Shown: one piece after another, positions 26,786-50,352 of the stretch
Layout of the letters: each line of letters begins with the position of its first letter
How positions within the stretch are numbered: position 1 is the stretch's first letter
DNA from: Candidatus Latescibacterota bacterium
GTDB taxonomy: Bacteria; Latescibacterota; UBA2968; GCA-2709665
Reading direction: 5' to 3'
NCBI GenBank assembly: GCA_965116875.1
Contig: OZ220733.1
Span: 224,001-288,000 of the forward strand
DNA: 64,000 nt
Position numbers and translations under genes: made by a program
Notes under the pieces: generated by a model
Databases searched by the model: none
The model's input: only the letters and a program-made list of their open reading frames with translations
Told to the model about the DNA's origin: nothing

Positions 26786-26787
26786 CT

Positions 26788-29700: not shown

Positions 29701-29931
29701 CACTGCGCTCAGAACGGCTTCGAGAGGGCGAGTGACGTATTCTTCCACGTCACGAGCGTTCATCGTGGGACACTCGGTTCGCACGATAAGTCTTGGTACA
29801 TCGATATCGGGAAGGAAGTCCACGCTCAGCCGGAAGAGTGAATAAACGCCAAGCAGAATGACGGCAAGAAAGCAAACAGTGGTGGCTACCGGCCGGCTGA
29901 CCACAACGCGCACAATTCGCATAAGCGCCAA
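26788..29931 (-). CDS. RND efflux permease (AcrB/CzcA superfamily), subunit 1
   Basis: SRPVAT, GILVDNSIVVLENI, LAAQFES, GIVVNDAIV and RFRPICMTTMTTVCGLLP. Confidence 0.93.
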   Translation of the reverse strand: MALMRIVRVVVSRPVATTVCFLAVILLGVYSLFRLSVDFLPDIDVPRLIVRTECPTMNARDVEEYVTRPLEAVLSAVSKVHRIRSVSREGLSFVDVSFRWGSDMDLAFVQVRSSLDQGMLPQAAGRPTILRFDPASAPIMTLIVTGSRIERPRSRQDYNEALMELKEVSESVVKRRLEQIDGVAYVQVVGGQEREIRVYLDTEQCRRYGVSFEDVESSLKQFNVVSFGGAVREGYSRFPLRIQAEFTRIDEMGRIPVRHEPKQIRLKDVARIEKGFTDRRGYTRLNGSEVITLHLFKEAGSNTVDTSEKVYGDLYRFSRDYPDFEVRPLFDQAEFIRESVDNVLQSLYLGGLFAFVSLVLFLRDLRNPIIIGLSIPVSIIATFICMYFLDIHLNVISLGGLALGIGILVDNSIVVLENIFRHRELQADSREASVRGTNEVGLAITASTFTTMSVFLPLVYIKGMAGVLFFEQAVTISLALAASLLVSITLLPMLASRQWKPERVNRGRFRLVYRYASIGLIPFVRSIELFQRIVAGVFAIYERALSIALRHRWKVICVAVLPLPVSGWMALKMDRELMPDVDRKRLIAQVELPQDASLATTSAQVTRLEKRVLTERGVESVLASVGITREAMDGRYQPGLNKALLDIELTKDAAGVEVARRLEGAFTEFGGLTLTLSRPESVFEHLFQVQQAQFDVKIVGSDLDTLAALSRRICEFMRQSPSFVNVQSDLTQGRRAYSVRVDRDAAIIYGVRPEKLSLFIERHLDGSIPTRFVDFVEQIDIRVLAEGRGNLDLKRILTIKYPVRKRGRVIHVPLSELIHLEPAEDFEEIHRQEQARTVTITAGLHEIHRDQARDLVARIVDKIGLPNGYWIESGSQYAHMFEQYRNILSILAISLILVYFILAAQFESLMVPLVIITTVPLASTGVVTTLWLTGNTLNVMSLLGCIVLVGIVVNDAIVKVDFIHHRVQTSGDLQLAILDAGRKRFRPICMTTMTTVCGLLPMALSSGSGAELRRPLAWAIVGGISLATLGTLVFVPIIYAVLVRKKN

Positions 29932-29934
29932 TCC

Positions 29935-31140
29935 TCAGCGTTGAACCACAATGACGCTGGCGTCGTGGGCGAGATTGAAATGTCCCGATACGATCAATTC
30001 TTCGCCTTCTATCAGACCTTCTTCAATTTCGATTAATTCATCGTTCTCCAACCCAGTTCTTACGTAACGCCATTTTGCCAAACCTCCCTCATGTACGAAA
30101 ATCAGTTTCCGGTCGTCACGGATAAGCAGAGCATCCCTTGGAATGAGTAGACGCTTCCTGAACACACGGGTTTCAACGTCGACCTTCGCGAACATACCTG
30201 GCTTGATCCTGTGTTCGGGGTTGTCGATCCAGATTTGAATGTCACACATACCGCTTTCAGAGTCAACCACCGGGTTAATTACTCGAATCGTTCCGCCGAA
30301 CTTCTCGCCGGGAAACGCGTGGAGACGTATTGATACGGGGGCGCCAATCCTCGCCAACGGCAACTCTCTCTCAAGTATTCCGACTTCAAGTGTCAGGGAA
30401 TCGAGCGCTACCAGCCGCATTAATTCCTGGCCTTGCGCGACCGTACCGCCATTACCGATTTCCAGGTCGGTCACATACGCGCTGAAACGGGCTCTGATGA
30501 CTGTATTGTCTACCTTTAGTTTCGACTCTGCGACATCCAGTCTTGCCCGCGTGAGGCCCGTACTGCTGGCAAGCCACGCCTTGCGCGAATTCTCCGACGC
30601 CAGCGCCAAGGCATCCATATCGTCAACATTGGCACTGTCGACAGTCTCTTCCATTTCCTTCATTAATCGTCCGCCCCTGTCCAAGTGGTTTCCCACAAGG
30701 GCTAGGGCGGCATATTCACGCAATGCACGGGTCATCTGATCCTTCGCCTTCATATAAGCGATACGATAGGGTTCGCCGTCAATCTCAATTACAATGTCGC
30801 CCTCGCGGACAAAACTACCCTCCTCGACATGCAAACGATGGACCTGTCCGGAGACCCGGGCGACGACACGCGTCTCGATACGAGGCCTGAAAACTCCTTC
30901 CGAAGAGATTCTTCTCACGAGATCCCGTTTACGGACCGTCTCCACCACGACTGGCGTATTCGGAGACTCGAATTCGGGAAACGCTTCCAGTGCTTTGTCT
31001 CGCGAAGTCGCGGATGGATTGAGGGCATTCCAAACCACAAACCCCACGGCTCCAAGCCCAAACCCCAGCACAATATAAAATAGACGATTCACTGTTTCGA
31101 CACCCGTACGCGTCCCATAGCGGTTAACCTTTGCAGACAA
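29935..31140 (-). CDS. RND periplasmic adaptor (membrane fusion protein)
   Basis: N-terminal TM, lipoyl halves (VSGQV..LHVEEG..V.EGD; IRARFSAYV), IKPGMFAKV. The start is possibly GTG at 31092. Confidence 0.9.
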   Translation of the reverse strand: MSAKVNRYGTRTGVETVNRLFYIVLGFGLGAVGFVVWNALNPSATSRDKALEAFPEFESPNTPVVVETVRKRDLVRRISSEGVFRPRIETRVVARVSGQVHRLHVEEGSFVREGDIVIEIDGEPYRIAYMKAKDQMTRALREYAALALVGNHLDRGGRLMKEMEETVDSANVDDMDALALASENSRKAWLASSTGLTRARLDVAESKLKVDNTVIRARFSAYVTDLEIGNGGTVAQGQELMRLVALDSLTLEVGILERELPLARIGAPVSIRLHAFPGEKFGGTIRVINPVVDSESGMCDIQIWIDNPEHRIKPGMFAKVDVETRVFRKRLLIPRDALLIRDDRKLIFVHEGGLAKWRYVRTGLENDELIEIEEGLIEGEELIVSGHFNLAHDASVIVVQR

Positions 31141-31545: not shown

Positions 31546-32553
31546 TCATTCCGACGGTTCGTAATGATTGCATATTAACTCCAGGTCGTTCAATGCAGCC
31601 TCTTCGAGGTTTGCGATTTCCAAAAGACGTTTGTAAAGTTTTTCTAATGTCGGTATCAAGGCTCTTTTTTGGGCAATATAACAGAGGTTTCGGAATACAA
31701 GCCATTTTTGGGAAATCGTTTTGAATTGCCTCGCCAACTGACACAAACGACGATCTCGCAACGAGACCGCCCCGAATTCCAGAAATTTCGCGTGACCCTC
31801 ACGCTCGGGGATTACCATCTGAGTTTGTCGGAAGACCTGATCTAGCAGCTTACGTGCTTTCTCCTTCTTGAGCCATTTCCAGTGTTCCAAGTCGTTAGCG
31901 AGGGATCGCAGACCCGTCAACCCGAGACAGGTACCAGGTACGTGGAAACTGTCGCCACGCATAAATTGAATATTCTTATTAATCGATCGTTCAGTCTCGT
32001 CGGACGTCAGGTTCCAACGGGGTTCCGAACATTTGATTTCCAGCCACGTAAATTTCGGGATTTCATCTGATCCCCAGGCTTCCTTCAACCCGGAGATCGG
32101 CAGACTTCCTCGGAACAACTTAGTTGGCGATGGATCTACAATATGTACCATGTCCATTTCGTCGTCGTACCCAGCAAGAATAACGGCGTGAGACGAATGA
32201 TGGCCTAGTCCCGGATAGTAGTAACGTTCTAGATAATACGTGTCGGCTACCGCCGGTACCGGAACGCCCTCATCTATTCGCGACTTAGCGCATTTCCAGG
32301 CAGTTTCACCATCTCGTTCGTGATGCACTGTTACATGAATACCACATTGTCTTAATCTCGTCTGAAAATGAGTGATACGTGGACTAATTTTCACTTCTGC
32401 ACTGCCTTCCAGTTGGTATGAGAAATACCACTCGTCGTGCAATACGGTGGCAGTCGTGTACCCAAAAAACTGCAACATTACATCTAATGCCACATAATCA
32501 CAGGGATACGAATCGCAATCGCAGAAAGGAATTCCGGATATAAGTCGTCCCAT
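31546..32553 (-). CDS. BtrH N-terminal domain / DUF4872-like protein (papain-like fold, putative ACP-dependent acyltransferase)
   Basis: Early Cys (YPCDY), IDEGVPV...DTYYL, HSSHAVILAGYDDE..VHIVDP, LKEAW, GLTGLRSLA; helical C-terminus ending IANLEEAAL. Confidence 0.75.
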   Translation of the reverse strand: MGRLISGIPFCDCDSYPCDYVALDVMLQFFGYTTATVLHDEWYFSYQLEGSAEVKISPRITHFQTRLRQCGIHVTVHHERDGETAWKCAKSRIDEGVPVPAVADTYYLERYYYPGLGHHSSHAVILAGYDDEMDMVHIVDPSPTKLFRGSLPISGLKEAWGSDEIPKFTWLEIKCSEPRWNLTSDETERSINKNIQFMRGDSFHVPGTCLGLTGLRSLANDLEHWKWLKKEKARKLLDQVFRQTQMVIPEREGHAKFLEFGAVSLRDRRLCQLARQFKTISQKWLVFRNLCYIAQKRALIPTLEKLYKRLLEIANLEEAALNDLELICNHYEPSE

Positions 32554-35075: not shown

Positions 35076-35339
35076 TTAGCTGCTCGCCAATTTACCGGAC
35101 ACATAACGAACCATAGAATTCACAGAATCGAAGAGGTCGACGCGTAATTCTTCGTCATCCACCTCAATTCCAAACTCCTGTTCAAGAGCAAAGATGATTT
35201 CTAGTGCGGCAATCGAGTCAACTCCCACGCCCTCGAAAAGCAACTCATCATCGGCAATGTCGTTAGGGTCAATACTCAGGCGGAGTGACTGGACGATCGC
35301 AGATTTTACACGCTGTCCAATGAGCGTCAATTCTTCCAT
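35076..35339 (-). CDS. Acyl carrier protein (phosphopantetheine-binding)
   Basis: 87 aa, acidic; GVDSIAALEI (phosphopantetheine Ser) and LEQEFGIEV; overlaps the upstream gene. Confidence 0.9.
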   Translation of the reverse strand: MEELTLIGQRVKSAIVQSLRLSIDPNDIADDELLFEGVGVDSIAALEIIFALEQEFGIEVDDEELRVDLFDSVNSMVRYVSGKLASS

Positions 35340-37243
35340 CCGTTTTTCTTGTCCTCGGTAAAGTGATCGATTGCCACATCAACCGCCTTTTGAATACCCT
35401 CTGCCGACGAAATACATATGGCGGGTAATCCAAAAGACCGTTCCAATTGTCCCAACTTACAGGCTACTTCGGCTTGAGTCAGCGGTCGCGGTCTTATCGA
35501 CGTTCGACCATACCTAGCCTGCACTCCCTTTTCAAAGTCTGACGTGGCTAGCAACAATGTGGGCGCGTGACAAAATGCGCGAATGCCGTTGACCGTGTCC
35601 TGAATATAGTCTTCGGGATCGACACTGTTTACCACCAATATGCAAGCATCAGGCTTCACACCCATTAAAAAAGCAATGGTGGGCAGCGTCAAAGTATGCT
35701 TGTCGCATACGTCATAGGGAACCGTTCCGGATTGGGTACCGACCAAAATGAGATGAGGTCGTGTTTGGTAGCAAATCTCGCGCATCTTCGCATCGAGAAA
35801 CGGAATATAGTATTCAGTCGGAATTCGAACAGAGGGTGCGTAGCCCATTGGAAACCCATAATCCATGCCGAATAGCTCGGAATGATGTTCAGTCCCAATC
35901 TGTGCAATCCGAAACCCTAGTTCTAGCAATCTTCGCCGGAACGCTAATTGAAGGGTAAATTTACCCTGTTGCGAACTCGTACCTACTATAGCCAAAACCG
36001 GAACATCCACTTCGGGGAGCGATGAGCATCCATCGACTGTACGGCTCGCCTCTTCAAACGACAGCTCAGGATAATACAGTCTCAATCCTTTAGAAGCAGC
36101 GACTTCATGCAAGTCACCGTACTCCGCGTGAGGTAGTGCAAGTAGGCTGAACACGTTTACTTCATTATCGAGTGCGACCTGAACGCACTTTCTAAGGAAA
36201 TCGCTCTTACGGATTCGACTCAATTCATCAACGTAACCAAGAATCAGAGTGTCTGCATGCTCCAGACACGCCGACAGCCGGGATGTGATCCGGAGACCCT
36301 TATTACACAGGCCGATTGCTTCCCCTGCATCGCTGCCGACCAATCCCTTTCCGACAGGATCGGATATGCCCACGACCTGAAAGCCCAATAGGTCATTCGC
36401 ACGAACTACGGCGTGCATTTCCTTATTATACGGGTAGAGGCAGGCCTTGCGTATCCACGAGAAGCGATCCTCTGCAGCAGACGGGACCTTGATGGATGAC
36501 GCAGGGTTTGTTACGAGAGGAGGCGCCGTTTCGGATACTGCGTGGTTACTCAGAATCTCACGGATCTGTTGCAAGCAGGCACCAGGGTAAGCCTGCCGGA
36601 TTAGCGCGATCAGACCGGTTATATGTGGCGCAGCGAAACTGGTACCGCCCATCATTATTTCCTTCGGCTCCAACCAACACACCCGTTGGGGGTCGCCGCG
36701 CGCAATGCACTCAATCGGTCGACCGGCGCGATAATAGTAGTCGTACGGGCCAAGCAACGCACCCGAACCGACACCAATGACGTCGGCTAACAACGCAGGA
36801 TACGAGTCACGTCCCTCGTTATTTGCGGATGCTACCAAAAGAGTACCAACGCTGACTGCATTGCGACAGACGTTTGCCAACTCGTCACGATAAGCGATAT
36901 CCGTTGTTCCCAAGCTTAGATTTACAATGTCGATTCCGTGCGCAACTGTCCATTCGATGGCCGCTATGAGCAGTCGTGGTTCCGTCGACAAGGATTCGTC
37001 AAAAACTCGGATACTATAAATTGAGGCGTCCATCGCTTTCCGCCGGATAATACCTGCACAGGCCGTTCCGTGACCCACGCAGTCTTCAAAATCAGAACCA
37101 TAGATTAAATCCCCTGCTTTACCGACTGATATAGAAACCCCGTCTGTCAACGGACCAACCTTCGGGTGGTCCGGCACGATGCCACTATCTATAACTGCGA
37201 CGGCAACGCCGCGTCCGGTCAAGTTTGAAAACGGAAAACTCAT
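35327..37243 (-). CDS. S8 subtilisin-like peptidase fused to a DUF1611/TIGR04066-like P-loop domain
   Basis: Catalytic triad VAVIDSG / GHGTACAG / GTSFAAP. The C-half has LYPYNKE...GLVGSDAG and VPVLAIVGTSSQQGKFTLQL...GFRIAQIGTE. No signal peptide. Confidence 0.85.
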   Translation of the reverse strand: MSFPFSNLTGRGVAVAVIDSGIVPDHPKVGPLTDGVSISVGKAGDLIYGSDFEDCVGHGTACAGIIRRKAMDASIYSIRVFDESLSTEPRLLIAAIEWTVAHGIDIVNLSLGTTDIAYRDELANVCRNAVSVGTLLVASANNEGRDSYPALLADVIGVGSGALLGPYDYYYRAGRPIECIARGDPQRVCWLEPKEIMMGGTSFAAPHITGLIALIRQAYPGACLQQIREILSNHAVSETAPPLVTNPASSIKVPSAAEDRFSWIRKACLYPYNKEMHAVVRANDLLGFQVVGISDPVGKGLVGSDAGEAIGLCNKGLRITSRLSACLEHADTLILGYVDELSRIRKSDFLRKCVQVALDNEVNVFSLLALPHAEYGDLHEVAASKGLRLYYPELSFEEASRTVDGCSSLPEVDVPVLAIVGTSSQQGKFTLQLAFRRRLLELGFRIAQIGTEHHSELFGMDYGFPMGYAPSVRIPTEYYIPFLDAKMREICYQTRPHLILVGTQSGTVPYDVCDKHTLTLPTIAFLMGVKPDACILVVNSVDPEDYIQDTVNGIRAFCHAPTLLLATSDFEKGVQARYGRTSIRPRPLTQAEVACKLGQLERSFGLPAICISSAEGIQKAVDVAIDHFTEDKKNGWKN

Positions 37244-37354: not shown

Positions 37355-37846
37355 CTAACCTCCGTCATCGGTCTCGGTTGCCACCGGAAATCCCGCCTCG
37401 GCCCACAACGGCCATCCACCGGAAAGCACCCTGACGTTTGCATATGTGAATTCTCGTGCGAGGCGCCGCGCTACATCATAGCTACTCATACATGTAGCAT
37501 TTGCACAGTAGACGATAATATCGGTATCCGCCGGATAAGGCTCAAGCACACGATGCAATTTGGAAGTCGAATAGTGATATGACAGACGGACAGCACCCGG
37601 AATATGCCCACCATTAAATGCCTCAGCCGAGCGAGCATCTACAAATAACGCTGCTCCCCTGTCATATTGGTGCTTAGCTTCAACTAAATCCAATGTCCCA
37701 ATAGCCTGTTCTTCTAAAGTGCCGACATTTGCAAGAGGAAGTCCAGCCACCGTCCGCCGGGCATAAAACCACTCGGTCAATTGAAGGACGGCACAATACA
37801 TCACAATTAATATGAATACCAGTGAAACTATAACCCATCGCCACAC
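37355..37846 (-). CDS. Membrane-anchored rhodanese-like protein
   Basis: N-terminal TM; FVDARS..AF..GHIPGA, IIVYCANATC and VLSGGWPLW. Confidence 0.85.
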   Translation of the reverse strand: MWRWVIVSLVFILIVMYCAVLQLTEWFYARRTVAGLPLANVGTLEEQAIGTLDLVEAKHQYDRGAALFVDARSAEAFNGGHIPGAVRLSYHYSTSKLHRVLEPYPADTDIIVYCANATCMSSYDVARRLAREFTYANVRVLSGGWPLWAEAGFPVATETDDGG

Positions 37847-38067: not shown

Positions 38068-39750
38068 TTAATTGCGTGCCGTTGAAAAAAAACTGTTTAA
38101 GAAACTTTGTTTCTGGAGCAACGCCTGAGGTTGACCCTGTTCAACTACGGTGCCGTTATCAATGCAGATCACTTCATCCACATTTCGGACGACGTTTAGT
38201 CTATGACTGATAACTAGGATTGTCTTTCCAGCAAATATCCGTCGGACATTTCGAAGAATCGTGTGTTCATTTTGGGGATCCAAAGCTGCGGTCGCTTCGT
38301 CCATGATTAGCAACTCCGCAGGATTCAACAAGGCTCTAGCAATTGCAAGCCGTTGTCGCTGCCCACCCGACATCTGTACTCCTTGCTCTCCTATAGTTTC
38401 ATGTTGATTCAGATCGTTCAGACCAACCATCTCCATGACGCGGTCGATTTCTGATGAGTTATACCGAGCCGATCCGTACCGGATATTCTCGCCGACGCTA
38501 TCGTGAAATAGGTGGACTCGTTGGCTAACCAAACTGATATTACGCCTCAAGTCCGACAGTTCGAATTCTCGCATTTGAACATTGTCAATGTTGATGCAAC
38601 CTCGATCGGGAAGATGAAGCCCACAAAGCAAATTGGCAATCGTCGACTTTCCACTTCCACTCGCACCTACCAAAGCATACGATTTCCCTTTTGCCATACT
38701 AAATTTCACTCCTCGAAGTACTGTCTGACTCTCAAAACTAAAATAAACATCTTGAAGGTCAATCTGCCTCCCGAAGGTAAACTGTTTTCGTCCAGCAAAA
38801 AAACCAACCTCCGAGGGAATCTGCATAAACTCCAACACGCGACGCATGGAAACCAACCCTCGAACGAGCCCAATGTACATATCGTGCAGGTTCCGGACTG
38901 GCTGGAAAAGACGTACCGAGTACTGTAGGAAGGCAACTAGAGCGCCAAGCGACATGACGTCTTGCATAACCTGATACGCTCCGAATCCCATAATGAAGAG
39001 GGGGGTTAACGCGGCCAACCCTCCTGACACACTATTCATTGAGGCATAGTACAGGACATTGCGCATGATTAATTCAATTAGATCATCCGACATAAAACGA
39101 AATCTATCGGTTTCTCGCCTCGAACTATTCGTAAGTTTAATTAATGAGACGTTTTTAAATCGTTCAATTACGTAGCTGGAGATGTCGGACCCCTTTTTCT
39201 GAATCTTTTCGATATTCCGTCTAATCCTAGGCTGAAAATAGGTCAGATTTAATACAAACAACGGGACGCCGATTACAGTCAGCAAAAAAAGGGAGGCATT
39301 TAGCCACATCAACAATACGATCAGCCCAATCAAAGTCAGGACACTGTGGATCGAGTGCAACGCGCTGGAAGTCAGCATCGACTCAATCACTGCCACATCA
39401 CTATTGAGCCGGTAGACCAAATCTCCTGTCTTTCGATTGTCAAGTGAGCTTATCGGTAAATCCAACAGCTTACGAAACATCCGCACTCGCATATCCCGAA
39501 CAATGCGATTACTGCACCACGCGTAGAGGTAGTTTGATGCGAAAGACAAGATCATATTAGTTAACATCAAACCGCAGAGAAGTCCTATCGCGACTAGAAG
39601 AGTGGTATATTGTTTGGCTGGAATTATGTCATCGATAATCGTCTTCGTAATGTACGGTGGAGCTAAGGAAACCGCAGTGGTAAGGACAAGACAGATCACA
39701 ACGATTAATCCCTTAAAGCGGTAGGGATTCAGGAATTTGGCAAATCGCAC
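38068..39750 (-). CDS. ABC exporter, fused permease/ATPase (no C39 domain)
   Basis: 6-TM domain, GASGSGKST, MSGGQRQR, LIMDEAT and ISHR. Confidence 0.93.
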   Translation of the reverse strand: MRFAKFLNPYRFKGLIVVICLVLTTAVSLAPPYITKTIIDDIIPAKQYTTLLVAIGLLCGLMLTNMILSFASNYLYAWCSNRIVRDMRVRMFRKLLDLPISSLDNRKTGDLVYRLNSDVAVIESMLTSSALHSIHSVLTLIGLIVLLMWLNASLFLLTVIGVPLFVLNLTYFQPRIRRNIEKIQKKGSDISSYVIERFKNVSLIKLTNSSRRETDRFRFMSDDLIELIMRNVLYYASMNSVSGGLAALTPLFIMGFGAYQVMQDVMSLGALVAFLQYSVRLFQPVRNLHDMYIGLVRGLVSMRRVLEFMQIPSEVGFFAGRKQFTFGRQIDLQDVYFSFESQTVLRGVKFSMAKGKSYALVGASGSGKSTIANLLCGLHLPDRGCINIDNVQMREFELSDLRRNISLVSQRVHLFHDSVGENIRYGSARYNSSEIDRVMEMVGLNDLNQHETIGEQGVQMSGGQRQRLAIARALLNPAELLIMDEATAALDPQNEHTILRNVRRIFAGKTILVISHRLNVVRNVDEVICIDNGTVVEQGQPQALLQKQSFLNSFFSTARN

Positions 39751-39789: not shown

Positions 39790-40482
39790 CTAAAAGGGAT
39801 CACTGAGGACACCGCGCCCCTTGATTAACTCCAATAGAGACATACCGTGCATTTCTTTCAAGGGTGAATCAGCGAAACCCTCAACATTAATCTCAAAAGC
39901 AGGCATATGATTGTAAACAAGATCAACGAAGAACAAGGATGTGAATTGCTCCGCTTGGATTAGAGGAAGGTGGCATCGAATTATCCTGTTTTCTGGACTG
40001 ACAAGAAAAACCACAGGAGTTCGCACGAACAACCCATCGGAATCCTCTGGTTCTAGCGGAACACCTAACTGAAACGTCAACCTGAAGGCTCGCTTAAATT
40101 TAGTCAATTCTGATTGATCCCCATTTGAAATGGCGTAAATCGGCATCTCTAAGGAGTCCTTTAGGTTGTCGTGGATGTGTTGCAGCGCCCGTAATATTAG
40201 ATTGATGCAAGGTTGGCACGAATTCGGCGAAAACAAAAACACCAAGCCGGTCTTTGATCCTGAAAAGTCAGTACTTACCGTATCATTGCCAGTCGTGCGA
40301 ATTGACAATTTTGGAAATCCGCGACCGACTATCAGATCCTGCCGGTAGGTATTGACCACAAACGTGCGGTAAAACCGTAGATCGGTGAGATGTAATTTGA
40401 ATAACCAGGCGAGGGAGACGACTAGACCAATTAGGAAAAGCAGATTCGATACTACCAATAATCTCGTTATCCGCATAATCAT
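39790..40482 (-). CDS. Membrane-anchored thioredoxin-fold (redoxin-like) protein
   Basis: N-terminal TM; LVFLFSPNSCQPC (CxxC) and RTPVVFLV (cis-Pro motif). Confidence 0.7.
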   Translation of the reverse strand: MIMRITRLLVVSNLLFLIGLVVSLAWLFKLHLTDLRFYRTFVVNTYRQDLIVGRGFPKLSIRTTGNDTVSTDFSGSKTGLVFLFSPNSCQPCINLILRALQHIHDNLKDSLEMPIYAISNGDQSELTKFKRAFRLTFQLGVPLEPEDSDGLFVRTPVVFLVSPENRIIRCHLPLIQAEQFTSLFFVDLVYNHMPAFEINVEGFADSPLKEMHGMSLLELIKGRGVLSDPF

Positions 40483-40819
40483 ACCGAAACTTTACAACAA
40501 CCGTCGTTGCAGTCCATAGAGGTTATTGTAGTTTCTCGAATGAATTCTGTACGGTTCAAAACCACAACAAATCGACGGCCAACGGGTATTTGCCCTACGC
40601 TTCGGCGGCCGTCGCACACAGATGTTCTTGCGGGCACTGGTCATCTTCCGAACGCAGGCGCGCATCCTAAGATCCGGACTCACCCTCGACAAGACCACGC
40701 CAAACCACCTACGCAGCGCATTCGACAGACTCGAAACTTTGATCGACCAACATTGCGATCATGCCAAACTCGCTGCTTGAAGCTTGACTCAAACACCACA
40801 AAAACCGCCGACTAAGCAG

Positions 40820-41003
40820 GCTAGGGCTGCAGAAAGAATGCGCCAACCCAAGCTATTGCCACTGGCTCTCTGTGCTCTTTGCGCTGGATGAAGCCTTCCC
40901 CAAACACGACATCAACCCCGCTGGCCGCGTAAGATCGAAGCGATTTCCCAGCCGCACACTGGCGACAACCAATCCCATAGAATCCACGTTCACCACCGCA
41001 GCA
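40820..41003 (+). pseudogene. IS256 (mutator-family) transposase relic
   Basis: Frameshifted, deleted fragments APTQAIATGSL, ALDEAFP../RHQPRW and DFPAAHW/TTNPIESTFTT match the IS256 C-terminal pattern FPAEHW..LRTTNPIESTF. Confidence 0.6.
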
Positions 41004-41074
41004 GAGGGATTCTTCGATCCAATGAACAGCACCAATATCATACGTTTAACGTACTTACCGAAGTTAACGAAAGA

Positions 41075-41100
41075 CCGAAATACGGATCCGATCCACCATT
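41075..41100. repeat. Downstream arm of the inverted repeat flanking the precursor gene
   Basis: ccgaaatacggatccgatccaccatt, complementary to 41368-41396 apart from 3 single-nt bulges. Confidence 0.8.
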
Positions 41101-41120
41101 TCAGTCAACGAGAGTAATAC

Positions 41121-41342
41121 CTAAATGTTATACCATTCCGACCAATAGGTATCTCCCGAATTACAAAGGGCAACTTCGATCTCATTCGTGGCATCGCAAG
41201 AATAGTGGTCTCTCCGCTGCAACTGACCATTGTGGCACCTTTTTTCGAATTTGTCGTTGAACCATTGATATCCATCGTACCATTCGTACGCGTATATCAA
41301 TGTATCCTGTCGACGGTTCCGTGGTTTTCGTAGCAAGTTCAT
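41121..41342 (-). CDS. Putative RiPP precursor peptide (73 aa)
   Basis: GGGAGG RBS; MNLLRKPRNRRQDTLIYAY-EWYDGYQWFND...C...C...C...YWSEWYNI. Basic leader ending in AY; located between the rSAM/SPASM gene and the exporter/protease genes. Confidence 0.75.
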   Translation of the reverse strand: MNLLRKPRNRRQDTLIYAYEWYDGYQWFNDKFEKRCHNGQLQRRDHYSCDATNEIEVALCNSGDTYWSEWYNI

Positions 41343-41367
41343 GTTGCCTCCCTTTTGAGAGTTTGAG

Positions 41368-41651: not shown

Positions 41652-42875
41652 CTAGTTATTTGCACCAAAGTCAAGCGCATAGACAGCCACATTGCCATTG
41701 GAATTTTCCGACTCTGCTGCCGACGGCTCACTCCATACATACAACTGATCCCGCGAAGATGCTATACTATTCCACGGGACCGATATAACTTCGGATTCGA
41801 GGTGCTCCTTTGCTGACCTACTAAAGTCATAGACTCCGACGGCCTCTTCTGTGTCGAGGTCGTAAATCGACCAGTTGGTAATACTTGCGACGGTCGTGTC
41901 CTCGGTCGTGCCAGGGTTTATGTGCGAAACCATCAAAAATCGACCATGGACGATTGTCATGCTACTTACAGTTGTCATTTTCAATCCTCTCATATCTTCA
42001 CGACTCCCTTGTTCAATTCCATGATACCTTGTCGGCAACGGTACATATCCTTTCGGACGACGACCAAATCGCCTGATGGTTATCCCAGTCTCGGCGTCGA
42101 TTTCTCTAACCATGTAGTCGTTTGGTCCCAGGAAATACAGCCTATTCCGTACCACGCTGTAGCATAGATGCGCAAAGGCTTTCATGCGATATGAGATAAA
42201 CCTCTGGGAATTGGTAGAAAGAGCCACGCGATACACAACATCCCATCCGGACGGTTCAAGGCGTCGCAATTCCATTATCTTCATCGGGTTTACCATCAGT
42301 ACGAAGACCTCGCCCAATCTACCCGTTAACACCCTGGTGGCATGTAGTAACCGTGTCGTGTCCACATGTTTCCCGGCTCTGTCATATCGGACAATCTGGC
42401 CATAAGTTGAATCCAACAGGTACACCATACCCTGCGGGTCTATTGACATATAACGAGCACTGCCATATTCGCCTGGTCCGCGACCCTGACGACCAAACGA
42501 CTGGATATAGCGTCCGTCCGAAAGGTCAAATTCATGTGCTCTTTCACCAATCCGGTCGGTAAGCAGTAGAGTGTTATCCCGTGTCACACCTATCCAGTTT
42601 GCCTCACCAATCCCAGGTGTTTTTTCGTTAAAGTCCAGACTAAATTGGCGCTTCAAATCAAGACCGATTTCGCCGATATATTCCAACTTCGTTTCGTGAA
42701 TGGACTCTTCGTTGGCCTCGTGAGGCGAAGACTTCGAATACGTCTCCTTCGACTGGTCCGGCACTTGTGCAACCGCCCGGCCGTTTCCGGAAACAAGAAC
42801 GACCGTAAGTAAAAAAACAAAAAGACTGAACATTCTTTCCGGCCAATGACGTCCAGCTAACGTGCTCTTCTTCAT
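41652..42875 (-). CDS. Exported 6-bladed beta-propeller (NHL-like) protein
   Basis: Signal peptide; FDLSDGRYIQSFGRQGRGPGEY, IDPQGMVYLLD and YDRAGK. Confidence 0.8.
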   Translation of the reverse strand: MKKSTLAGRHWPERMFSLFVFLLTVVLVSGNGRAVAQVPDQSKETYSKSSPHEANEESIHETKLEYIGEIGLDLKRQFSLDFNEKTPGIGEANWIGVTRDNTLLLTDRIGERAHEFDLSDGRYIQSFGRQGRGPGEYGSARYMSIDPQGMVYLLDSTYGQIVRYDRAGKHVDTTRLLHATRVLTGRLGEVFVLMVNPMKIMELRRLEPSGWDVVYRVALSTNSQRFISYRMKAFAHLCYSVVRNRLYFLGPNDYMVREIDAETGITIRRFGRRPKGYVPLPTRYHGIEQGSREDMRGLKMTTVSSMTIVHGRFLMVSHINPGTTEDTTVASITNWSIYDLDTEEAVGVYDFSRSAKEHLESEVISVPWNSIASSRDQLYVWSEPSAAESENSNGNVAVYALDFGANN

Positions 42876-42989
42876 CGTGAACTCCTTTCGAATTTGTGCT
42901 GTGTCATTGTGTAATGGTTACGTGCGTAACCATATTATAATACAATGACTTGGGTACGGAAACCACCTCTTTTGTGAATTATTCAGGCT

Positions 42990-43290
42990 TAGTATGCATG
43001 ACGTCGCCGATACCCCAGCGACACAATTGGATTCTCACGTTCACCTTTTCTCCGACGACGGCGGCCTTCCACCTTCAAAACACCGTTCGCCTCACGCATT
43101 ACCTCTCTCGAGGCCTGCTAAACCTTCACTCGCGTTACGGACTGTATACTTGCAAGTTGCCATGCGACCTATACACCGGAGCTTAGGACAACTCGATGCT
43201 TTCCTGCCTGCTTTACTTGCAACCGACGGCGGCAACATTGGGCTGGTGCGACTCTCTCCCACAAGAGTTCCGCACCTTTTCACGGCGTAT
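42990..43290 (-). mobile_element. Probable degenerate group II intron 5' fragment (domain I)
   Basis: The minus strand begins ATACGCCGTGAAAAGGTGCGG (cf. GTGCGCCGTGAAAAGGCGC) and contains CCGTAACGCGAGTGAA..GGCCTCGAGAGAGG. No RT ORF or domain V was seen. Confidence 0.5.
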
Positions 43291-43361
43291 GGTTGTCGAA
43301 TTAACGCTAATCACACAATAATGTACGAGGAGGCTCGGTTGATCGAGTTTTATAAGTAGCT

Positions 43362-44819
43362 TCACTCGGCATCACCTTGATTAACCAATCTTAGATTGTA
43401 CCTCTCCTGCAACAGTTTCTTGTCCGTGTTTTGAATTTCTATACACATTTCCATGGCGAGTTCATAGCTATAACGGATCTGTTCGCACGAGACAGGGTTC
43501 GGATTTATCGGGTCCCCAGTTGCAGTCCGGGCATCATATATACACCCGCCCCCACACAGGTTTCTTGCCCAGCAACGCCGACAGTCGGAACGGGAATCGA
43601 CATGGAACGAATCTTTGAATCCATCCTGGACATTTTCGTCAAGACCAGAGAAGACGTCGCCCATCTTAAACTCCGGCCGGTCGGCAAGACTTGAACAAAA
43701 ATAGATGTCGCCTTCTACATCCACGGCCAGAAATGTCCTCCCGCCTTGACAGCCATAACATGATTTCGCGCGAGTCATTAATCGTTCGATAAAACGGTCG
43801 AAAAATCCTCTCTCGTGCGACCCTTCCAGAATGTTCGCCGTCTCATGCCGGCTTAAACCGCAAAGTCTGCGCTTTATTTCAGGCAGATGCTCCTCGCGCA
43901 GCGCATAAGGTTCTTCAGGTGCAGCAACGACAGGAGCCACTCTAACACGACATGCGCCAAGTTGCCTCAAATCATCAGCAATGGACTCCCTGTCCAGATT
44001 GTACGAAGTCATTGTTGCGCGTACCGATACCTTATCCGGTGACTCTTTCGTCAATTTCAACAGGTTCTCGGCCACCACATTGTACGTTTCACTGCCATCT
44101 CGAAACTTCCGCAGTCGGTTTTGGTCTCTCGGGTTGCCGTCGACACTAACCTGAATGTGAATTTCCTCATCAATTAGAAACTGTAAGATTTCATCCGAAA
44201 TTAGAGTGCCATTAGTTGCGATACCAAAAGAGACCTGAACCCCAACCCGATGGGCATACTCACGGGCAAAGGGAATGATATCTCGAATTAACTCGAAGTT
44301 CAGGAGCGGTTCCCCACCGAAAAAGTCTATCTGACACCTGCCGAACGAGCGAGCTTCACTCAGTGCCCATCGTACAGCCTGCCTTGCTACATGCGGCGTC
44401 ATAAATCCCGGTACCCTTCCGTAGTCGCCGCCATGTGCGAAGCAATAGGTACATTTGACGTTACAGGCGTGCGAAACGTGTAACGTGATGTGAAATTGAC
44501 TCTCACGGGGCTCGGACTCTGGCAATCCGCAGATCCCTTGATCCGGCCCCTGTGTATCTGAATGAAGTTTCAGCGAGGCATCGTATATGAGCTGGGCTTC
44601 GGCAAGGACCTCAACTGCCTTTAACACGTCCTCGCCAGGAAATTCATCGGCCAATTCAAAAACGACTTCCTGGTCCGTTAGTCCGTCGCAAATCTTGAGA
44701 ATCGACTCATAGAGCGGATTCAGTTCAAAGAACAGTCCCGTGTAAACCTGAAACAAAAACGTACGTTTCGACTGGGATGTTCTGAAAAGATGCATTTCAG
44801 ACTTTGCGATTCGTAGCAC
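43362..44819 (-). CDS. Radical SAM/SPASM peptide maturase with N-terminal RRE (CteB/PapB/QhpD-like)
   Basis: CNVKCTYC, FFGGEPLLN, IATNGT, VSVDG; SPASM Cys set CQGG...IYFC...CRRCWARNLCGGGC...SC; PqqD-like N-terminus. The start is uncertain (44795, 44819 or 44969). Confidence 0.9.
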   Translation of the reverse strand: MLRIAKSEMHLFRTSQSKRTFLFQVYTGLFFELNPLYESILKICDGLTDQEVVFELADEFPGEDVLKAVEVLAEAQLIYDASLKLHSDTQGPDQGICGLPESEPRESQFHITLHVSHACNVKCTYCFAHGGDYGRVPGFMTPHVARQAVRWALSEARSFGRCQIDFFGGEPLLNFELIRDIIPFAREYAHRVGVQVSFGIATNGTLISDEILQFLIDEEIHIQVSVDGNPRDQNRLRKFRDGSETYNVVAENLLKLTKESPDKVSVRATMTSYNLDRESIADDLRQLGACRVRVAPVVAAPEEPYALREEHLPEIKRRLCGLSRHETANILEGSHERGFFDRFIERLMTRAKSCYGCQGGRTFLAVDVEGDIYFCSSLADRPEFKMGDVFSGLDENVQDGFKDSFHVDSRSDCRRCWARNLCGGGCIYDARTATGDPINPNPVSCEQIRYSYELAMEMCIEIQNTDKKLLQERYNLRLVNQGDAE

Positions 44820-45183
44820 TTCCTCTGCCCCCAATACCCGACACACAAACAACCGATATACTATTGGGCTGTATGCTTTTCCCGTGGAGTGGGTCCATTC
44901 TGTGATTTTTTGATTGTGACCGCGTTTGTCATTGGTGGCGGCAGAATGGGGAACCACGGCCATTCGCACAACGTCGCTTCAATAGGAGTCGTCGATCCAA
45001 AGCATCCGCAAATTTTCCCCCTATTGTCTGAAACACCGTTGACCGGGAACAGTGAAGGTTTGGGATTATTCAGTGCCATTATCGTCCTCCTTGCCCGTTC
45101 AGCTTTGCGCGTCTCTATACTACAATGGAGATCAAACACGTGGCGCCAAATCCATCATGCAATTAATGCTATGAATGGGATGC

Positions 45184-45199
45184 TGCAAACCACGTACCC
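45184..45199 (-). promoter_or_regulatory. Candidate sigma54 (-24/-12) promoter facing the rSAM gene
   Basis: Minus strand GGGTACG-TGGT-TTGCA gives GG-N10-GC, with 2 mismatches to TGGCACG-N4-TTGCW; AT-rich DNA lies upstream. Confidence 0.5.
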
Positions 45200-45465: not shown

Positions 45466-48400
45466 TCAACGCAGACCATAACGCGTCATCATCTTCTGAA
45501 GTCCATTTCGGCTGAGACCTAAATGAGCGGCAGTATGAGAAATGTTCCCCTTGCATTTGTCAAGTGCCGCGGCTATCATCCTTTTTTCAAGGGCAGCCAC
45601 CTCCGATTTTAGATGTCCTCGCGAACCTTGTTCGGCGTCTTGACGATGTTCAATCCTCTTCGAGAATAGATCGACGGAAACCTTCTTTCCTTCTTCAACC
45701 AACGCAACCGCGCGTCTTATCTCATTCTGCAATTCACGGACATTGCCCGGCCACGCGTGATCCATTAATCCCCGCATTGCACCCACTGTAAAGCCCAGTA
45801 CTTCCTTTCCCTGCTCCGAAGAAACACGCTTCAGTATATGTTCCGACAACGAAGGGATGTCCTCAATACGGTCACGCAGTGGAGGCATTTCAATCTGTAA
45901 AACGCGCAGCCGGTAATACAAGTCCTCCCGAAAAAGACCGGCACGCACGTCCGCTTCCAGGTCGCGATTCGTCGCTGCAATCACCCGAACGTCTACGTGG
46001 CGAACATTAGTCTCTCCTACTCGCTGTGTCTCCCCATCCTGCAGTACGCGCAACAGGCTTATTTGCAATTGCGAAGAGGCATCCCCGATTTCGTCTAGAA
46101 ACACGGAACCGCCCTCCGCGGAGGCGAATAGTCCCTTGCGGTCGGATGAAGCCCCGGTAAATGAGCCTCTCTTGTGACCGAACAGCTCGCTCTGAAGCAG
46201 TTCGTGGGTAAGCGCCCCGCAATTTGCGGAGAGAAAGGGTTTCGCCTTGCGGTTGCTCCGGGTATGGATAGCCCGGGCGGCCAGTTCCTTCCCCGTTCCC
46301 GTCTCACCCTGTATAAGCACAGTCATGTCGCTTTCAGCCGCCACGTCGACCAGTTTGAACACTTCCTGCATCAGCTGACTCTGTCCGATAAGTTCTCCCA
46401 TTCGGTAGGTGCCCTCGTATTTTTCCTGGAAAAAAAGTGCCTGCTCCTGGCTCCGGGAGAACATCCGGGCGTTGACAACCGCAATGGAGGCCAAATTCGC
46501 AAATGCCGCAAACAAGGCTGTGTCTTCTTCGCGAAACAAATCTTCTAGCTTTCTATGGTCCAAATACAGCGCGCCGATGACACCCGATTCCGCATGCCGC
46601 AGTGGAACGCAAAGCACCGATCGGATGCCGTAGGCCGAAACGCTGGCCCTTTTTCTGAATCGATCGTCAACGCGAGCATCCAGACTCAATACGGGCTCGT
46701 GCCGCTGCATCGACCACCTGATTATTCCCTCGCTGATCTCCCTTGCAGCTAAGTCATCCAGATTATACTTACGCGCAACCTTGACGCGACCGGCTGCCCC
46801 ATCCTCGATAGCAATCAAAACACGTTCGGCCTGGCTCACCTTCTTCAGTCGGTCCAGAATTCGATCAAGTAGCACATTCAGGTCCAAGACCGACGTCAAA
46901 TCTTCGGATACTTCATAAAGGGTCTGCAGATGCTCTTGGGAAAGCGCCGTAACCTTCGCCTCTGGTGTAATAGTCATCGCAGTTTCCTCAATAACCAGGT
47001 TTAGGAGATCCGCTGCCTTTCGGGCCAGATAACGCAGATTCAAGCGTTCGGCAGCCTCACGGGCATTTTCCAGGCACCCTCGGGCATCGGCAAGACGCCG
47101 CCGTTCCAGATAATACGCGCCCGCTACAACGAACAGGTTTACCTGTTCCAAGCCGTCCGGGGAACCCTGGACTTCCAATGCATGATCAATCAGGGAATCG
47201 ACTTCGTCATGACGGTCGGCCGCGACGAGCGATTTCGCCTTTGCGGTCCATGCAATGGCGCGGACATTCCCGCCGTACTCCACGCCCGGCCAGGCCCGTT
47301 CGGCCCAGGCCAGCGCCTCTTCAACACGGCCGGTTTCCGCGAGTGTCTCGGCCAGCAACGCATGGGCGCGGCACATTTCATCGGAGCGGCCGGTACCCGA
47401 CAGAAGCCGCACTGCGGCACCCGCGTGTGCTTCTGCAGCCTCGGCATCTCCGTTTTCCAAGGCAACCCTGCCCAAAAACACGAGTGATCCTGCCTCCGCA
47501 GGTCTCGAACCGCGTTTGGCCCAAAAGTCTTTAAGCTCAAGGAAAATCTCCTCGGCCCGATCAAAATTACCCAACCGATTCTCTGCACGTCCCAAAAGGA
47601 AAAGACAGTTATGGCGATAAGCTCGATCGCCGTTCCTCTCTAATAGATTTAATGAAGAGTCCAGGAGCTTTTTCGATCTGTCATTACGATAAGTAAACTG
47701 CGCTGCAAACCCCAGATGCATCAAAGCACGGGCTTCGTTGATAGACCCTCCCATTTCGCGGCATTTTTCAGCTGCTGAATGACAAAATCCCGCAGCAACC
47801 TCTTTTTTCCCTAGCGCCACGTAGAGATTTGACAACAGACCCAAAACCCTAAGTTCATTCTCCGCCTCGCCCTGATTCCGGAAGAGTTCCAGCGCTTCTA
47901 ACAACATCGACTCAGCTCTTTGGCAGTCCCCGCCATTCACGTAGGTAATTCCTAAAATCCTCAACACATTCGCCCTTTGCGCGGGCATTTCAAAGGACGC
48001 CCACTGCATGGCACCTTCCAACTCGCGGCGCGCGTCTTCGTACCTGCCGCATCCGCAAAGCGCTTCGGAGTAAGCGCAGAGAAAGTCGAGATGCATCACC
48101 GAACCGCGCGCAATGCAAACGGGGGCATCAGGGGAAAACGCGCCTTTTTTGAGAACAGTTCGGAACTGTTCGAGTGCGTGCGAGAAATATTGCATCCCCA
48201 ATGCAAAGCGGCCGGATAAGGTGACGTACCGCGCCATTTTTTCCAGGTCGTTCGATCTCAAAAAGTGATAGGCCAATTCATCCAATGACTCTGCGGCGCC
48301 GCAATCCAACCGTCTTTCTAAGGCGCTGCCTGCCTCCTGGTGAAGCAACGTACGTCTGTTTAACGATATGCCGTCGTAAACCGCCCGTTGGATCAGTCCA

Positions 48401-50352
48401 TGTGAGAACCGATAACGTCCACGAGGGTCCTGCATATCTCTCAAAAGGCCCAGGCTGACGTTTGCATCCACCGTCTCCAATAACTCCAGTTCATCCTCGC
48501 ACCAGACGTCTGAAATCAGCTCGAACGAAAACGCGCCGCGAAAGATTGATGCATATTCCAGCGCCTGCCTTTGGGCCGAACGAAGTCGTCCCAGGCGCAA
48601 CTTGATGGCCTGCATAATGCCCGACGGCATTGGCCATTCCGTCTCCTTCGGCCACCTCCAAATTCCTGTTGAATCCTTCCATATCAAGCCGTCGGCAATT
48701 GCTCCCCGAACCAATTCTACGACAAACAGTGGATTCCCCCCAGTTTCCTGGAAAACCCTACGATTCTCTTCCTCAGGTACAGCCTGTTCTCCAAGCAGGG
48801 ACGCAGCCAGATTCCCAGTTTCGTCCATATCGAGAGGCTGGAGACGAAAATGTTCAGCTCGAGTTCCAATTGGCCCATCTGTCAGGTCGTCGATTCCAGG
48901 GGGTAGCGGATCTTCGTCCACCTTGCGGCAAGCGAGCCCGAAGACGAGAGGTACGGGATCCGGATCTCTCCTCACAAAGTCCAGGAACCGCAGGGTCAGG
49001 TCGTCGGCCCACTGCACGTCTTCAATGCATACAAGGGTCGGCGTTTCCCTGCTCAGATCGACGAGAAGTTCCGACAAGGTCTCCATCGCCGGGTACGGAT
49101 CCGGCTGATCGGCGGGCGCCGGCCGTTCAATTTGCGTAAGAACTCGCTTGACGGATTCTTCCAGGTCTGGACCCCGAACGCCGGTCTGATCGGCCAGGTC
49201 TCGCAGGATTTCCAGGAATGGCCCAAAGGCTTGGCCCCCGCTCTCATAGCAACGTCCTGATTGTACGCGCATTCCGTTGACGCGGGCGTCGGCCTGGAAT
49301 TCTTCAAGAACTTGGGTCTTCCCGATGCCAGCACTGCCGCTCACGAGAATGATGCGCCCTATACCCTCGCGAGTATCCTGCAGGATCTTCCGTAGAGCCT
49401 TCATCTCACGTTCTCGACCCTGGAACTGGGGTTGGAAAACGGGAACGTCTGGGGCACCCAAGACAGGCCGCATTGAAACGGTAGCTTCGTCACCGTCTCT
49501 ATAGAATCCGCTTTCCTCGTTATTCGTCAAATCATACAGCAAGCTCCCTACCGAACTGTAGCGGTCAATGGGTTCCTTCTCGAGAAGCTTCATTACTGAC
49601 TCTTCGATCCCCGAGAAATCTTCGCCGGTTACAAGGTGCGGAGGGCGCGGCAATTCTTTCAGATGCTGAAGCAATACCGTTGCTGGATCTTCTCCCGTGA
49701 ATGGTGGTTTCCCGGTAAGAATCTCGTAAAGAATGACTCCCAATGAATAAAGGTCGGATCGCTGGTCAACTGCCTTTCCCCGGATCTGTTCGGGGGACAT
49801 GTACTCCAAGGTCCCGGTAGCCGCTCCGGGAGCCGAGAGGCGTTCCTCCCTTACATCTCTAAATCGCGCCAGACCCAGGTCCAGAATCGTAACCTCGGGC
49901 TTACCCTCAATCTCTGAAATCATAATATTTGAGGGCTTCAGGTCTCTGTGCAACACACCCTGTTCATGGATGTATCCCAACCCTTCTACAGTCTGGCGGA
50001 TAAAGGGAACGAGCCACGCGGATTTTAGCTTTTCACGATCATCTACTCCTGAAATCAGGTCGGACAAGGGACGACCATGGACAAAGTCCATGGAAAAATA
50101 CGGACTCCCGTCGTGCGCGCCCCAGCTGTGTGAAATAACAACTCGAGGATGTCGGATTCGAGACAAGATATTAAACTCCCTCAGAAATCGCCTTTGTGCC
50201 CCGTCCCCCGTGAGATCTAATATCTTAAGCGCTGTAATGGAATTTTTCCGTACGTCCCGCGCACGATAGACGGTACCTAAACCTCCATTTCCAACGGTAT
50301 TGAGGATCTCGTAACACCCGTCGACAACCGTGCCAGCCTTTAATTCGGACAT
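45466..50352 (-). CDS. Ser/Thr kinase - AAA ATPase - TPR - GAF - sigma54-dependent Fis-family activator
   Basis: Kinase [25 protein letters not shown]; GSAGIGKT; GAF; b[38 protein letters not shown]; C-terminal HTH. Confidence 0.92.

Follow-up and report, generated by a model that had tools for sequence, protein, structure and literature searches.

The window analyzed here is a 64,000-nucleotide (nt) stretch of the genome of a Candidatus Latescibacterota bacterium (GCA_965116875.1, contig OZ220733.1, positions 224,001 to 288,000 of the forward strand). On its minus strand it carries a short open reading frame (ORF), hereafter the flagged ORF, which an earlier note had described as a peptide precursor with two competing motif triplets and had linked to the neighboring radical S-adenosylmethionine (rSAM) enzyme. 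Judged by its relatives, the flagged ORF encodes a genuine precursor of an unnamed, fast-evolving peptide family. Its dedicated machinery is probably the downstream gene set and not the upstream rSAM enzyme, which most likely serves another peptide than the flagged one. The flagged ORF and its parts are as follows.

41121..41342, minus strand: flagged precursor ORF, 73 amino acids (aa) plus stop (translation)
41283-41342, minus strand: leader of the flagged peptide, approximately residues 1-20 (family alignment, peptide model)
41124-41282, minus strand: core of the flagged peptide, residues 21-73 (family alignment, peptide model)
41347..41353, minus strand: Shine-Dalgarno-like AGGGAGG, 4 nt 5' of the ATG at 41342 (read from the sequence)

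The flagged peptide alone was matched in a word-index single-sequence search. A full HMMER search of 1.84 billion representatives returned the flagged peptide and one 732-aa Ig-repeat protein, which contains YNYEWYKGK repeats and was judged to be a chance match. Neither Pfam nor NCBIfam assigned a family to the peptide. The family was built stepwise. In genome G035 a 65-aa ORF adjoining a thioredoxin-like gene has the same N-terminal pattern, M..L.KP......IYGYE, and a leader profile made after this ORF led to further copies. A scan for the S8 fusion protein of the downstream gene set (described below) yielded 77 loci, mostly in metagenome-assembled genomes labelled Candidatus Latescibacterota and some in genomes labelled Gemmatimonadota or Poribacteria, and iterated profiles over these loci gave 25 aligned family members. 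Weak genome matches with two in-frame TGA codons, considered as selenocysteine, were out-of-frame readings of another conserved gene and were rejected.

In the 25 aligned members M1, Y19, C49 and C60 are invariant, and L4, K6 and W27 are found in at least 90%. The leader of about 20 residues follows the pattern M-x-x-L-x-K-P/K-x7-9-I/V-x-A/G-Y-E, and the core is fast-diverging, acidic and contains Trp and Cys. This conserved leader and divergent core bear out the leader-plus-core organization that the earlier note had assumed. Mean pairwise identity falls from the S8 fusion (72%) over the leader (47%) and the propeller protein of the same loci (45%) to the core (30%), a gradient that is typical of a conserved leader and a hypervariable core. 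With the alignment profile, 36 proteins were retrieved from the large database; all are named "hypothetical" only and none has a Pfam domain. A phylum scan placed the family in 21 of 168 genomes and in 4 of 49 genera; its distribution across Latescibacterota-type genomes is patchy. Two degenerate copies were also seen. In one (L084, genome G024, 13795-13983) the start is truncated or a stop interrupts the frame, and the S8, carrier and thioredoxin-like genes are missing, while the other (L094, 8847-8975) ends soon after the leader; the module has decayed in some genomes.

A sister genome (G009) contains the flagged ORF in intact form, with 70 of 73 residues the same (96%), and its codon changes relative to the genome of the window (G000) are one synonymous and three non-synonymous. 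Between both genomes, identity is about 97% for coding as well as non-coding DNA, including the flanking intergenic DNA, and the pair is therefore uninformative on selection. The coding status of the flagged ORF rests on the wider family and not on the comparison with G009.

All motifs described in the earlier note could be recovered from the translation. The (E/Q)W(Y/F)(D/N) triplet consists of EWYD (residues 20-23), QWFN (26-29) and EWYN (69-72), the Cys triplet of C36-HNG-Q40, C49-DAT-N53 and C60-NSG-D64, and YxxEWY(D/N) bounds the core at both ends (Y17-A-Y-E-W-Y-D and Y66-W-S-E-W-Y-N). Within the flagged peptide the Trp triplet is far beyond chance. At least three copies of (E/Q)W(Y/F)(D/N) were seen in 0 of 200,000 shuffles of the peptide's own residues, and at least three copies of W(Y/F)(D/N) in approximately 3-5 per 100,000. 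At least three Cx3(Q/N/D), a pattern chosen post hoc, were reached in about 1 per 100 shuffles. No DNA direct repeat of 9 nt or longer was found within the flagged ORF, and hence the motif repetition lies at the protein level.

The earlier note had proposed to look for conservation of either triplet in homologues. This comparison revealed that neither of them is kept among 54 non-redundant members: (E/Q)W(Y/F)(D/N) occurs in one, the flagged peptide itself, and W(Y/F)(D/N) likewise in one of the 54. What the members share is at least one core Trp (54/54), at least two core Cys (53/54) and frequently an even number of core Cys (41/54); the last Cys is one of the three C-terminal residues in 35 and CxxGD is present in 16. 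Among 24 members, CxxGD after the last conserved Cys was counted in 10, against 0.74 expected and with 0 of 5000 core shuffles reaching 10, although shuffle figures over family members overstate significance because relatives are non-independent. No enrichment was found in the same 24 members for C-x3-(D/N/Q) (13 versus 9.9 in shuffled cores) or for C-x3-(D/E) (16 versus a shuffle mean of 12.6). The motifs of the earlier note coincide with family features at W27 (in QWFN), at C49 and at C60-NSG-D64, while E20 of EWYD is part of the leader. Of the Cys triplet, C60-NSG-D64 thus stands, since it falls on the family-wide CxxGD, but a general Cx3(D/N/Q) signature does not. Both "competing" triplets are for the most part private to the flagged lineage.

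The genes that travel with the flagged peptide lie around it on the same strand.

41652..42875, minus strand: DUF5128-type (NHL-like) six-bladed beta-propeller with an N-terminal signal-like segment (domain search, related loci)
39790..40482, minus strand: membrane-anchored thioredoxin-like protein, AhpC/TSA fold, CQPC motif (domain search)
38068..39750, minus strand: ABC exporter, membrane domain plus ATPase, without C39 peptidase domain (ABC_membrane and ABC_tran)
37355..37846, minus strand: rhodanese with an N-terminal membrane helix (domain search)
35327..37243, minus strand: S8 subtilase fused to a TIGR04066-like domain of the DUF1611/DgcN fold (domain and fold match)
35076..35339, minus strand: acyl-carrier-type protein, PP-binding, DS motif (domain search)
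31546..32553, minus strand: BtrH_N/C39-like protein (domain search, related loci)
23417..31140, minus strand: membrane-fusion protein and two RND permeases (domain search, related loci)

The carrier and the fusion protein gave Pfam matches (PP-binding, E 8e-12, and Peptidase_S8, E 2.3e-28). In 17 family loci the peptide is accompanied by thioredoxin-like, propeller, ABC, rhodanese, S8-TIGR04066 and carrier genes. Propeller and peptide genes occur in a ratio of about 1:1 in related loci, including tandem peptide-propeller pairs, and the carrier gene adjoins the S8 fusion in most of them. The closest loci, in which the S8 fusion is 61-65% identical and the gene order is the same, continue with the BtrH_N/C39-like protein and then the membrane-fusion protein and the two RND permeases. 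Upstream, a PAS histidine kinase and a LuxR-type regulator replace the kinase/rSAM module that is found in the window. The GC content across 35-46 kb is 0.44-0.51, compared to 0.52-0.59 in the flanks, which is compatible with acquired DNA. A unique spacer of 638 nt (40483-41120) separates the flagged ORF from the thioredoxin-like gene, where relatives have about 100-160 nt. It differs from G009 by a 474-nt indel, contains a terminator-like hairpin (40805-40819, minus strand), and revealed no Pfam domain, plasmid match, Rfam family or repeat within the genome.

The rSAM enzyme belongs to a module of its own, which precedes the propeller gene.

43362..44831, minus strand: radical SAM/SPASM enzyme of the thioether group; the longest ORF reaches 44969 (NCBIfam, structure search)
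44861..45079 (coding 44864-45079), minus strand: 72-aa ORF plus stop directly 5' of the rSAM gene, likely cognate rSAM precursor (conserved across loci)
45184..45199, minus strand: sigma-54-type -24/-12 element GGGTACGTGGTTTGCA, matching the consensus at 10 of 12 positions; about 105 nt separate it from the ATG of the upstream precursor by the coordinates, or 120 nt when measured from the 5' end of the element
45466..50352, minus strand: 1628-aa regulator with Ser/Thr kinase, AAA_16, TPR, GAF, sigma-54 activator and helix-turn-helix parts (domain search)

Wherever a homologue of the rSAM enzyme (52-94% identity) was found, its gene comes after that of a homologue of the 1628-aa kinase/sigma-54 activator. 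This one-protein signalling chain precedes every rSAM module with 40-94% identity. In each of 13 loci, the gap of about 500-600 nt between activator and rSAM genes is occupied by a small ORF that is conserved, and a sigma-54 -24/-12 element is placed 58-123 nt 5' of it. No sigma-54 site was found before the propeller gene or the flagged ORF. The small ORFs encode peptides of 57-72 aa with N14, G21, C38, P47 and P49 invariant; a single invariant Cys is followed by a Pro-rich segment, and one clade has an acidic tail. This family has 264 database members, all unnamed, and is covered by no Pfam or NCBIfam family. Its leader has an Asn (N14), an Ile at +9 (I23) and a Tyr at +12 (position 26, Y or C; Cys in the copy of the window). 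By eye, this is the spacing of the PapA leader LKQINVIAGVKEPIRAY, as given in the available part of PMC12715619. Inspection of the flagged family's alignment against the same published leader revealed no PapA-type Asn spacing, and the two peptide profiles show no similarity to each other (hhalign probability 1%). The upstream precursor is hence likely the true rSAM substrate. The earlier note had taken the LIYAY leader of the flagged peptide as a pointer to ranthipeptide chemistry, but the PapA-like Asn/Ile/Tyr spacing lies in the upstream precursor and not in the flagged family.

The distribution of the enzyme points in the same direction. Homologues lie inside only 2 of 17 flagged-family loci, and in G010, which is of the same genus, the peptide module and the rSAM gene are on different contigs. 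The PapB model retrieved no comparable rSAM from the four genomes with the closest modules (G053, G054, G056 and G057), with G000 as control giving 245 and 239 bits. The best match in these four (76-78 bits) is a housekeeping-like 448-aa ORF, which is also present in G000 and lies far from the module. Using the rSAM protein as query, 0 of 5 genomes were positive, namely these four and a fifth with closest modules. CxxGD is present in rSAM-less genomes (L091, L144) and is commonest in an rSAM-less clade. Taken with the enzyme's own precursor in 13 of 13 loci, this speaks against the neighboring rSAM as maturase of the flagged peptide, the role that it had in the earlier note. In the window, the spacer between the rSAM and propeller genes (42899..43308, minus strand) holds a 5' piece of a decayed group II intron and a hairpin repeat. 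The intron fragment (D1-D4, 43130-43264) scores 30.7 bits against a gathering score of 49 and is 71% identical to an intact-looking copy at G000:C1:3786042 (82.6 bits), and the repeat of about 90 nt (42899-42989) has at least six further copies in the genome. Such an intron/repeat scar fits a secondary junction between both modules.

A second rSAM module is found in the genome of the window (G000:C1, about 2.03 Mb). Behind it lie genes for an unknown protein of 224 aa, a thioredoxin-like protein, a peptide and a DUF5128 propeller. The peptide (L025, 8158-8388, plus strand) has 76 aa, a Sec signal and 9 Cys, and the arrangement is a leaderless analogue of the flagged triad.

Structure models were made for the peptide and the S8 fusion. 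The model of the flagged peptide, based on the 25-sequence alignment, has a mean predicted local distance difference test score (pLDDT) of 72 and a poorly defined leader (below 60). Its strands are residues 24-35, 41-52 and 65-72; the first hairpin turns at C36-HNG-Q40, and the outer strands contain the segments of the EWY(D/N) type. No fold match in the PDB was found at E <=0.001. The S8-fusion model (pLDDT 85.8) has two domains. Residues 1-245 adopt the subtilase fold: subtilisins and the leader peptidases NisP, EpiP and 4zoq are matched with Z scores of 26-29, and all of 36 sequences share D19, H58 and S202. The second domain, residues 256-627, folds like DUF1611 proteins (2g0t, Z 29.5; 2obn, Z 28.3) and also matches the N-acetyltransferase DgcN (7xrj, Z 24.3). 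Within this part Pfam DUF1611_C is matched, and residues 266-558 match TIGR04066 with E 1e-29 and 103.7 bits, below the cut-off of 200. We propose the S8 fusion as leader peptidase, and it is possibly an acyl-transfer enzyme as well.

The best reading of these data, to which we assign about an even chance of being correct, is that the S8 protein removes the leader, that the core is exported and forms a small beta-sheet with a Cys49-Cys60 disulfide, and that the N-terminus may be acylated. The cytoplasmic S8 domain would recognize the leader and cut near IYAYE. In a more speculative step, the new N-terminus may receive a carrier-borne acyl cap through the DUF1611/DgcN-fold domain and the carrier, together with the BtrH-like protein. 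The ABC exporter would carry the 53-residue core from the cytoplasm, and the RND set perhaps further. The core would fold into a three-stranded beta-sheet and form the Cys49-Cys60 disulfide, aided by the membrane-anchored CQPC thioredoxin-like protein; this bond is suggested by the preference for even Cys numbers, by the invariance of both residues and by the presence of a dedicated oxidoreductase. Cys36 would be free or open to dimerization. A cognate extracytoplasmic propeller would bind the peptide, as immunity protein, receptor or chaperone. The EWY(D/N) repeats would then be a lineage-private structural feature, forming aromatic beta-strands, and not enzyme target sites.

Several observations weigh against this reading. 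The rSAM gene lies directly upstream on the same strand, and read-through from the sigma-54 promoter is conceivable; a separate promoter for the propeller or peptide genes was looked for and none was found. In G052 and G035 the rSAM module likewise adjoins the peptide module, in different arrangements, and in G027 about 13 kb lie between the two. In the window's own genome, a thioredoxin-like gene, a Cys-rich peptide and a DUF5128 propeller also come after the rSAM paralogue. Within the order to which the window belongs, the rSAM occurs in 8 of 10 peptide-bearing genomes compared to 9 of 31 peptide-less ones, numbers drawn from non-independent kin, and the two peptide-bearing exceptions are one weak match and one degenerate copy. 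Furthermore, the Firmicute archetype of the system includes an rSAM in the accessible text of PMC10731318, and the flagged peptide has an odd count of three Cys. The disulfide, the cleavage site, the acylation and propeller binding are steps that we infer, and the peptide model, from 25 sequences, is of moderate confidence.

A competing account, the one favored by the earlier note and considered unlikely by us, is that the PapB/CteB-like rSAM puts ranthipeptide-type thioethers on the flagged peptide, at least at Cys60-Asp64, before or alongside S8/carrier processing, as in a complete CLI_3235-type system. The adjacent and co-oriented rSAM gene, the repeated juxtaposition of the two modules and the 8 of 10 peptide-bearing genomes of the order argue for it, and so does the SacP23 cluster, which according to the available part of PMC10731318 joins the same accessory genes to an rSAM. 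The enzyme scores best on thioether families (nif11 246, SCIFF 245, PapB 237 and QhpD 229 bits), its nearest solved structure is CteB (5wgg, E 6.5e-57), and C60-NSG-D64 is a CX3D motif within the enriched CxxGD. According to PMC12715619 and PMC9413430, PapB accepts foreign or absent leaders and varied Cys-Xn-Asp/Glu spacing, and reportedly needs little besides a thiol and a carboxylate. Yet all rSAM family scores remain below their curated cut-offs, the enzyme has its own precursor with PapA-like leader spacing at 13 of 13 loci, a spacing absent from the flagged peptide, and the two peptide profiles are unrelated. A comparable rSAM is missing from the four genomes searched with the family model and the fifth searched with the protein query, which hold the closest modules, and CxxGD is commonest exactly in the rSAM-less clade. 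Of the three Cys, a single one is followed by a carboxylate at +4, and the Asn or Gln acceptors suggested for the other two in the earlier note find no precedent in what PMC9413430 reports of PapB in its available part, where a carboxylate is required. The even-Cys bias fits disulfides, and the decayed intron and repeat scar splits the rSAM from the module.

Trp cyclophanes of the triceptide type on the three (E/Q)W(Y/F)(D/N) motifs, made by the same rSAM alone or together with thioethers, are very improbable. Aromatic-x-(D/N) resembles triceptide motifs, and the Trp triplet by far exceeds what shuffling of the peptide yields. However, the motif occurs in 1 of 54 family members, E20 of its first copy belongs to the conserved leader, and the copies fall into predicted beta-strands at either end of the core. 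On cyclophane families the enzyme scores far lower than the 237-246 bits on thioether families (YhhB 74.9 bits, cut-off 445; FxsB 61.9 bits, cut-off 370). It is also improbable, if somewhat less so, that the flagged ORF is a decaying or silent remnant of an acquired module, which a rearrangement placed beside the rSAM locus and whose peptide is no longer produced. The unusually long unique 638-nt spacer with its 474-nt indel, the upstream intron/repeat scar, the lower GC content across 35-46 kb and the degenerate copies in G024 and L094 would suit such a history; against it, the ORF, its ribosome-binding site and all module genes are intact in G000 and G009, and the conserved family positions are retained.

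Among the known systems closest to the flagged locus is the CLI_3235 (TIGR04065)/TIGR04066/TIGR04069 (acyl carrier protein-related)/CcpM system of Firmicutes, for example the SacP23 cluster of Paenibacillus polymyxa, as far as it is described in the available part of PMC10731318. There, the SacP23 leader MRKLVKRSTNVGDTIEAFG resembles the flagged leader by eye (M-x-x-L-x-K ... D-T-x-I-x-A-F/Y, with a Cys core), and the neighbors include TIGR04066-type, acyl carrier-like, S8 and ABC exporter proteins. The same text reports a blocked N-terminus for the SacP23 product, which by analogy would be consistent with the proposed capping; it is no evidence for the flagged locus. Unlike in the CLI_3235 system, the S8 and TIGR04066-like domains are fused at the flagged locus, most flagged-family loci lack an rSAM, and the neighboring rSAM stays below the cut-off for CcpM (TIGR04068, 150 bits versus 500). 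The flagged loci add propeller, thioredoxin-like, rhodanese and RND genes, and the cores are about 50 aa long, acidic and Trp-containing with 2-6 Cys and without dense Cys runs. The relevant NCBIfam models, including that of the CLI_3235 precursor, matched 0 of 25 family members at E up to 10 and 0 of 14 other leader-type peptides. We file the flagged locus as a new variant of the little-studied CLI_3235/TIGR04066-type maturation system. A literature search on CLI_3235/TIGR0406x found SacP23 and annotation listings alone among the papers covered, and one on DUF5128/NVEALA and DUF1611/DgcN found nothing useful.

Likeness to PapA/PapB (freyrasin) consists in the I-x-A-Y end of the flagged leader, one CX3D and the 237 bits of the rSAM on the PapB model. 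The earlier note was right that the PapA leader ends in IRAY (it reads ...KEPIRAY) and that PapB links CX3D, as the available parts of PMC12715619 and PMC9413430 confirm. According to the same parts, PapA has six CX3D repeats, compared to a single Cys with Asp at +4 in the flagged peptide. Moreover, the score on PapB is below the cut-off of 340, and the flagged family occurs without a comparable rSAM. The data do not establish the flagged peptide as a ranthipeptide or as a triceptide. With the S8 lanthipeptide leader peptidases NisP, EpiP and 4zoq the S8 domain aligns over 227-233 residues (Z 26-27, root-mean-square deviation 2.8-3.1). It differs from all three in lacking a signal peptide, in its fusion to a DUF1611-fold domain and in having no lanthionine enzymes nearby. 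The C-terminal half as a whole folds like DgcN and DUF1611 proteins (7xrj, 2g0t, 2obn; Z 24.3-29.5, identity 15-20%), and we infer a peptide as its substrate and the carrier protein as its acyl donor. The QhpC/QhpD/QhpE/QhpF system, which matures quinohemoprotein amine dehydrogenase, likewise has a small Cys/Trp peptide that is served by a thioether-forming rSAM, an S8 leader protease and an ABC exporter. Of the NCBIfam models, QhpE matches the S8 domain best (143.8 bits, cut-off 165), and the rSAM reaches 229.1 bits on QhpD (cut-off 453); no dehydrogenase subunit genes were seen among the annotated neighbors.

Genome-mining rules would call this locus a ranthipeptide cluster and assign the wrong precursor to the rSAM, and antiSMASH "ranthipeptide" clusters are listed for Latescibacterota, without precursor detail in the available part of PMC12993501. 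Splitting the two modules directs experiments to the right enzyme-substrate pairs. Two unannotated precursor families are exposed in this way, one of the flagged type with approximately 36 database proteins and one of the rSAM-linked type with 264. The models moreover may provide a first structural clue to the uncharacterized TIGR04066 component, which is predicted to have a DgcN-type acyltransferase fold and is here fused to a putative leader protease beside a carrier. If capping after cleavage is true, it would be a new route to N-acylated ribosomal peptides.

Leaders of the flagged type are not confined to the flagged family. A regular expression for leader-type ORFs (L-x-K-P/K ... I/V-x-A/G-Y), with the opposite strand as control, gave 58 ORFs on the strand of the S8 gene (42 of 77 S8-fusion loci) versus 12 on the other one. 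On visual inspection eight of the 58 seemed false, after which 51 ORFs in 37 loci were counted. A single hidden Markov model over all leader types had been tried for counting loci and was discarded as too diluted, with seed sequences below threshold. Near S8-fusion paralogues the cores are hydrophobic and Gly/Ala-rich, Ser/Gly-rich, or Cys-free and acidic; since one leader type goes with such varied cores, the constant partner is the S8 fusion with the carrier protein. A tentative extension, which we hold to be rather unlikely as a whole, is that Latescibacterota and neighbors have a large unnamed superfamily of ribosomal peptides that share only an L-x-K-P...I-x-A-Y leader and undergo a "cut-and-cap" maturation without an rSAM step. 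In it, the subtilase-DgcN-fold acyltransferase fusion would remove the leader and move a carrier-borne acyl group to the N-terminus. In the Trp/Cys subfamily that includes the flagged peptide, the folded cores would co-diversify with propellers, each hypervariable core and its own periplasmic six-bladed propeller forming a toxin-immunity or ligand-receptor pair.

The same leader style was observed near S8-fusion paralogues in loci L100-L105, L108-L112, L124-L142 and L148-L159, often in tandem arrays of 3-4. Core types in these loci include hydrophobic Gly/Ala/Cys cores, acidic Trp/Cys cores with GAGDC behind an LHKPQRE...VLAYE leader, and long Cys-free cores that are acidic or rich in Ser/Gly. 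One genome carries at least seven copies of the S8 fusion.

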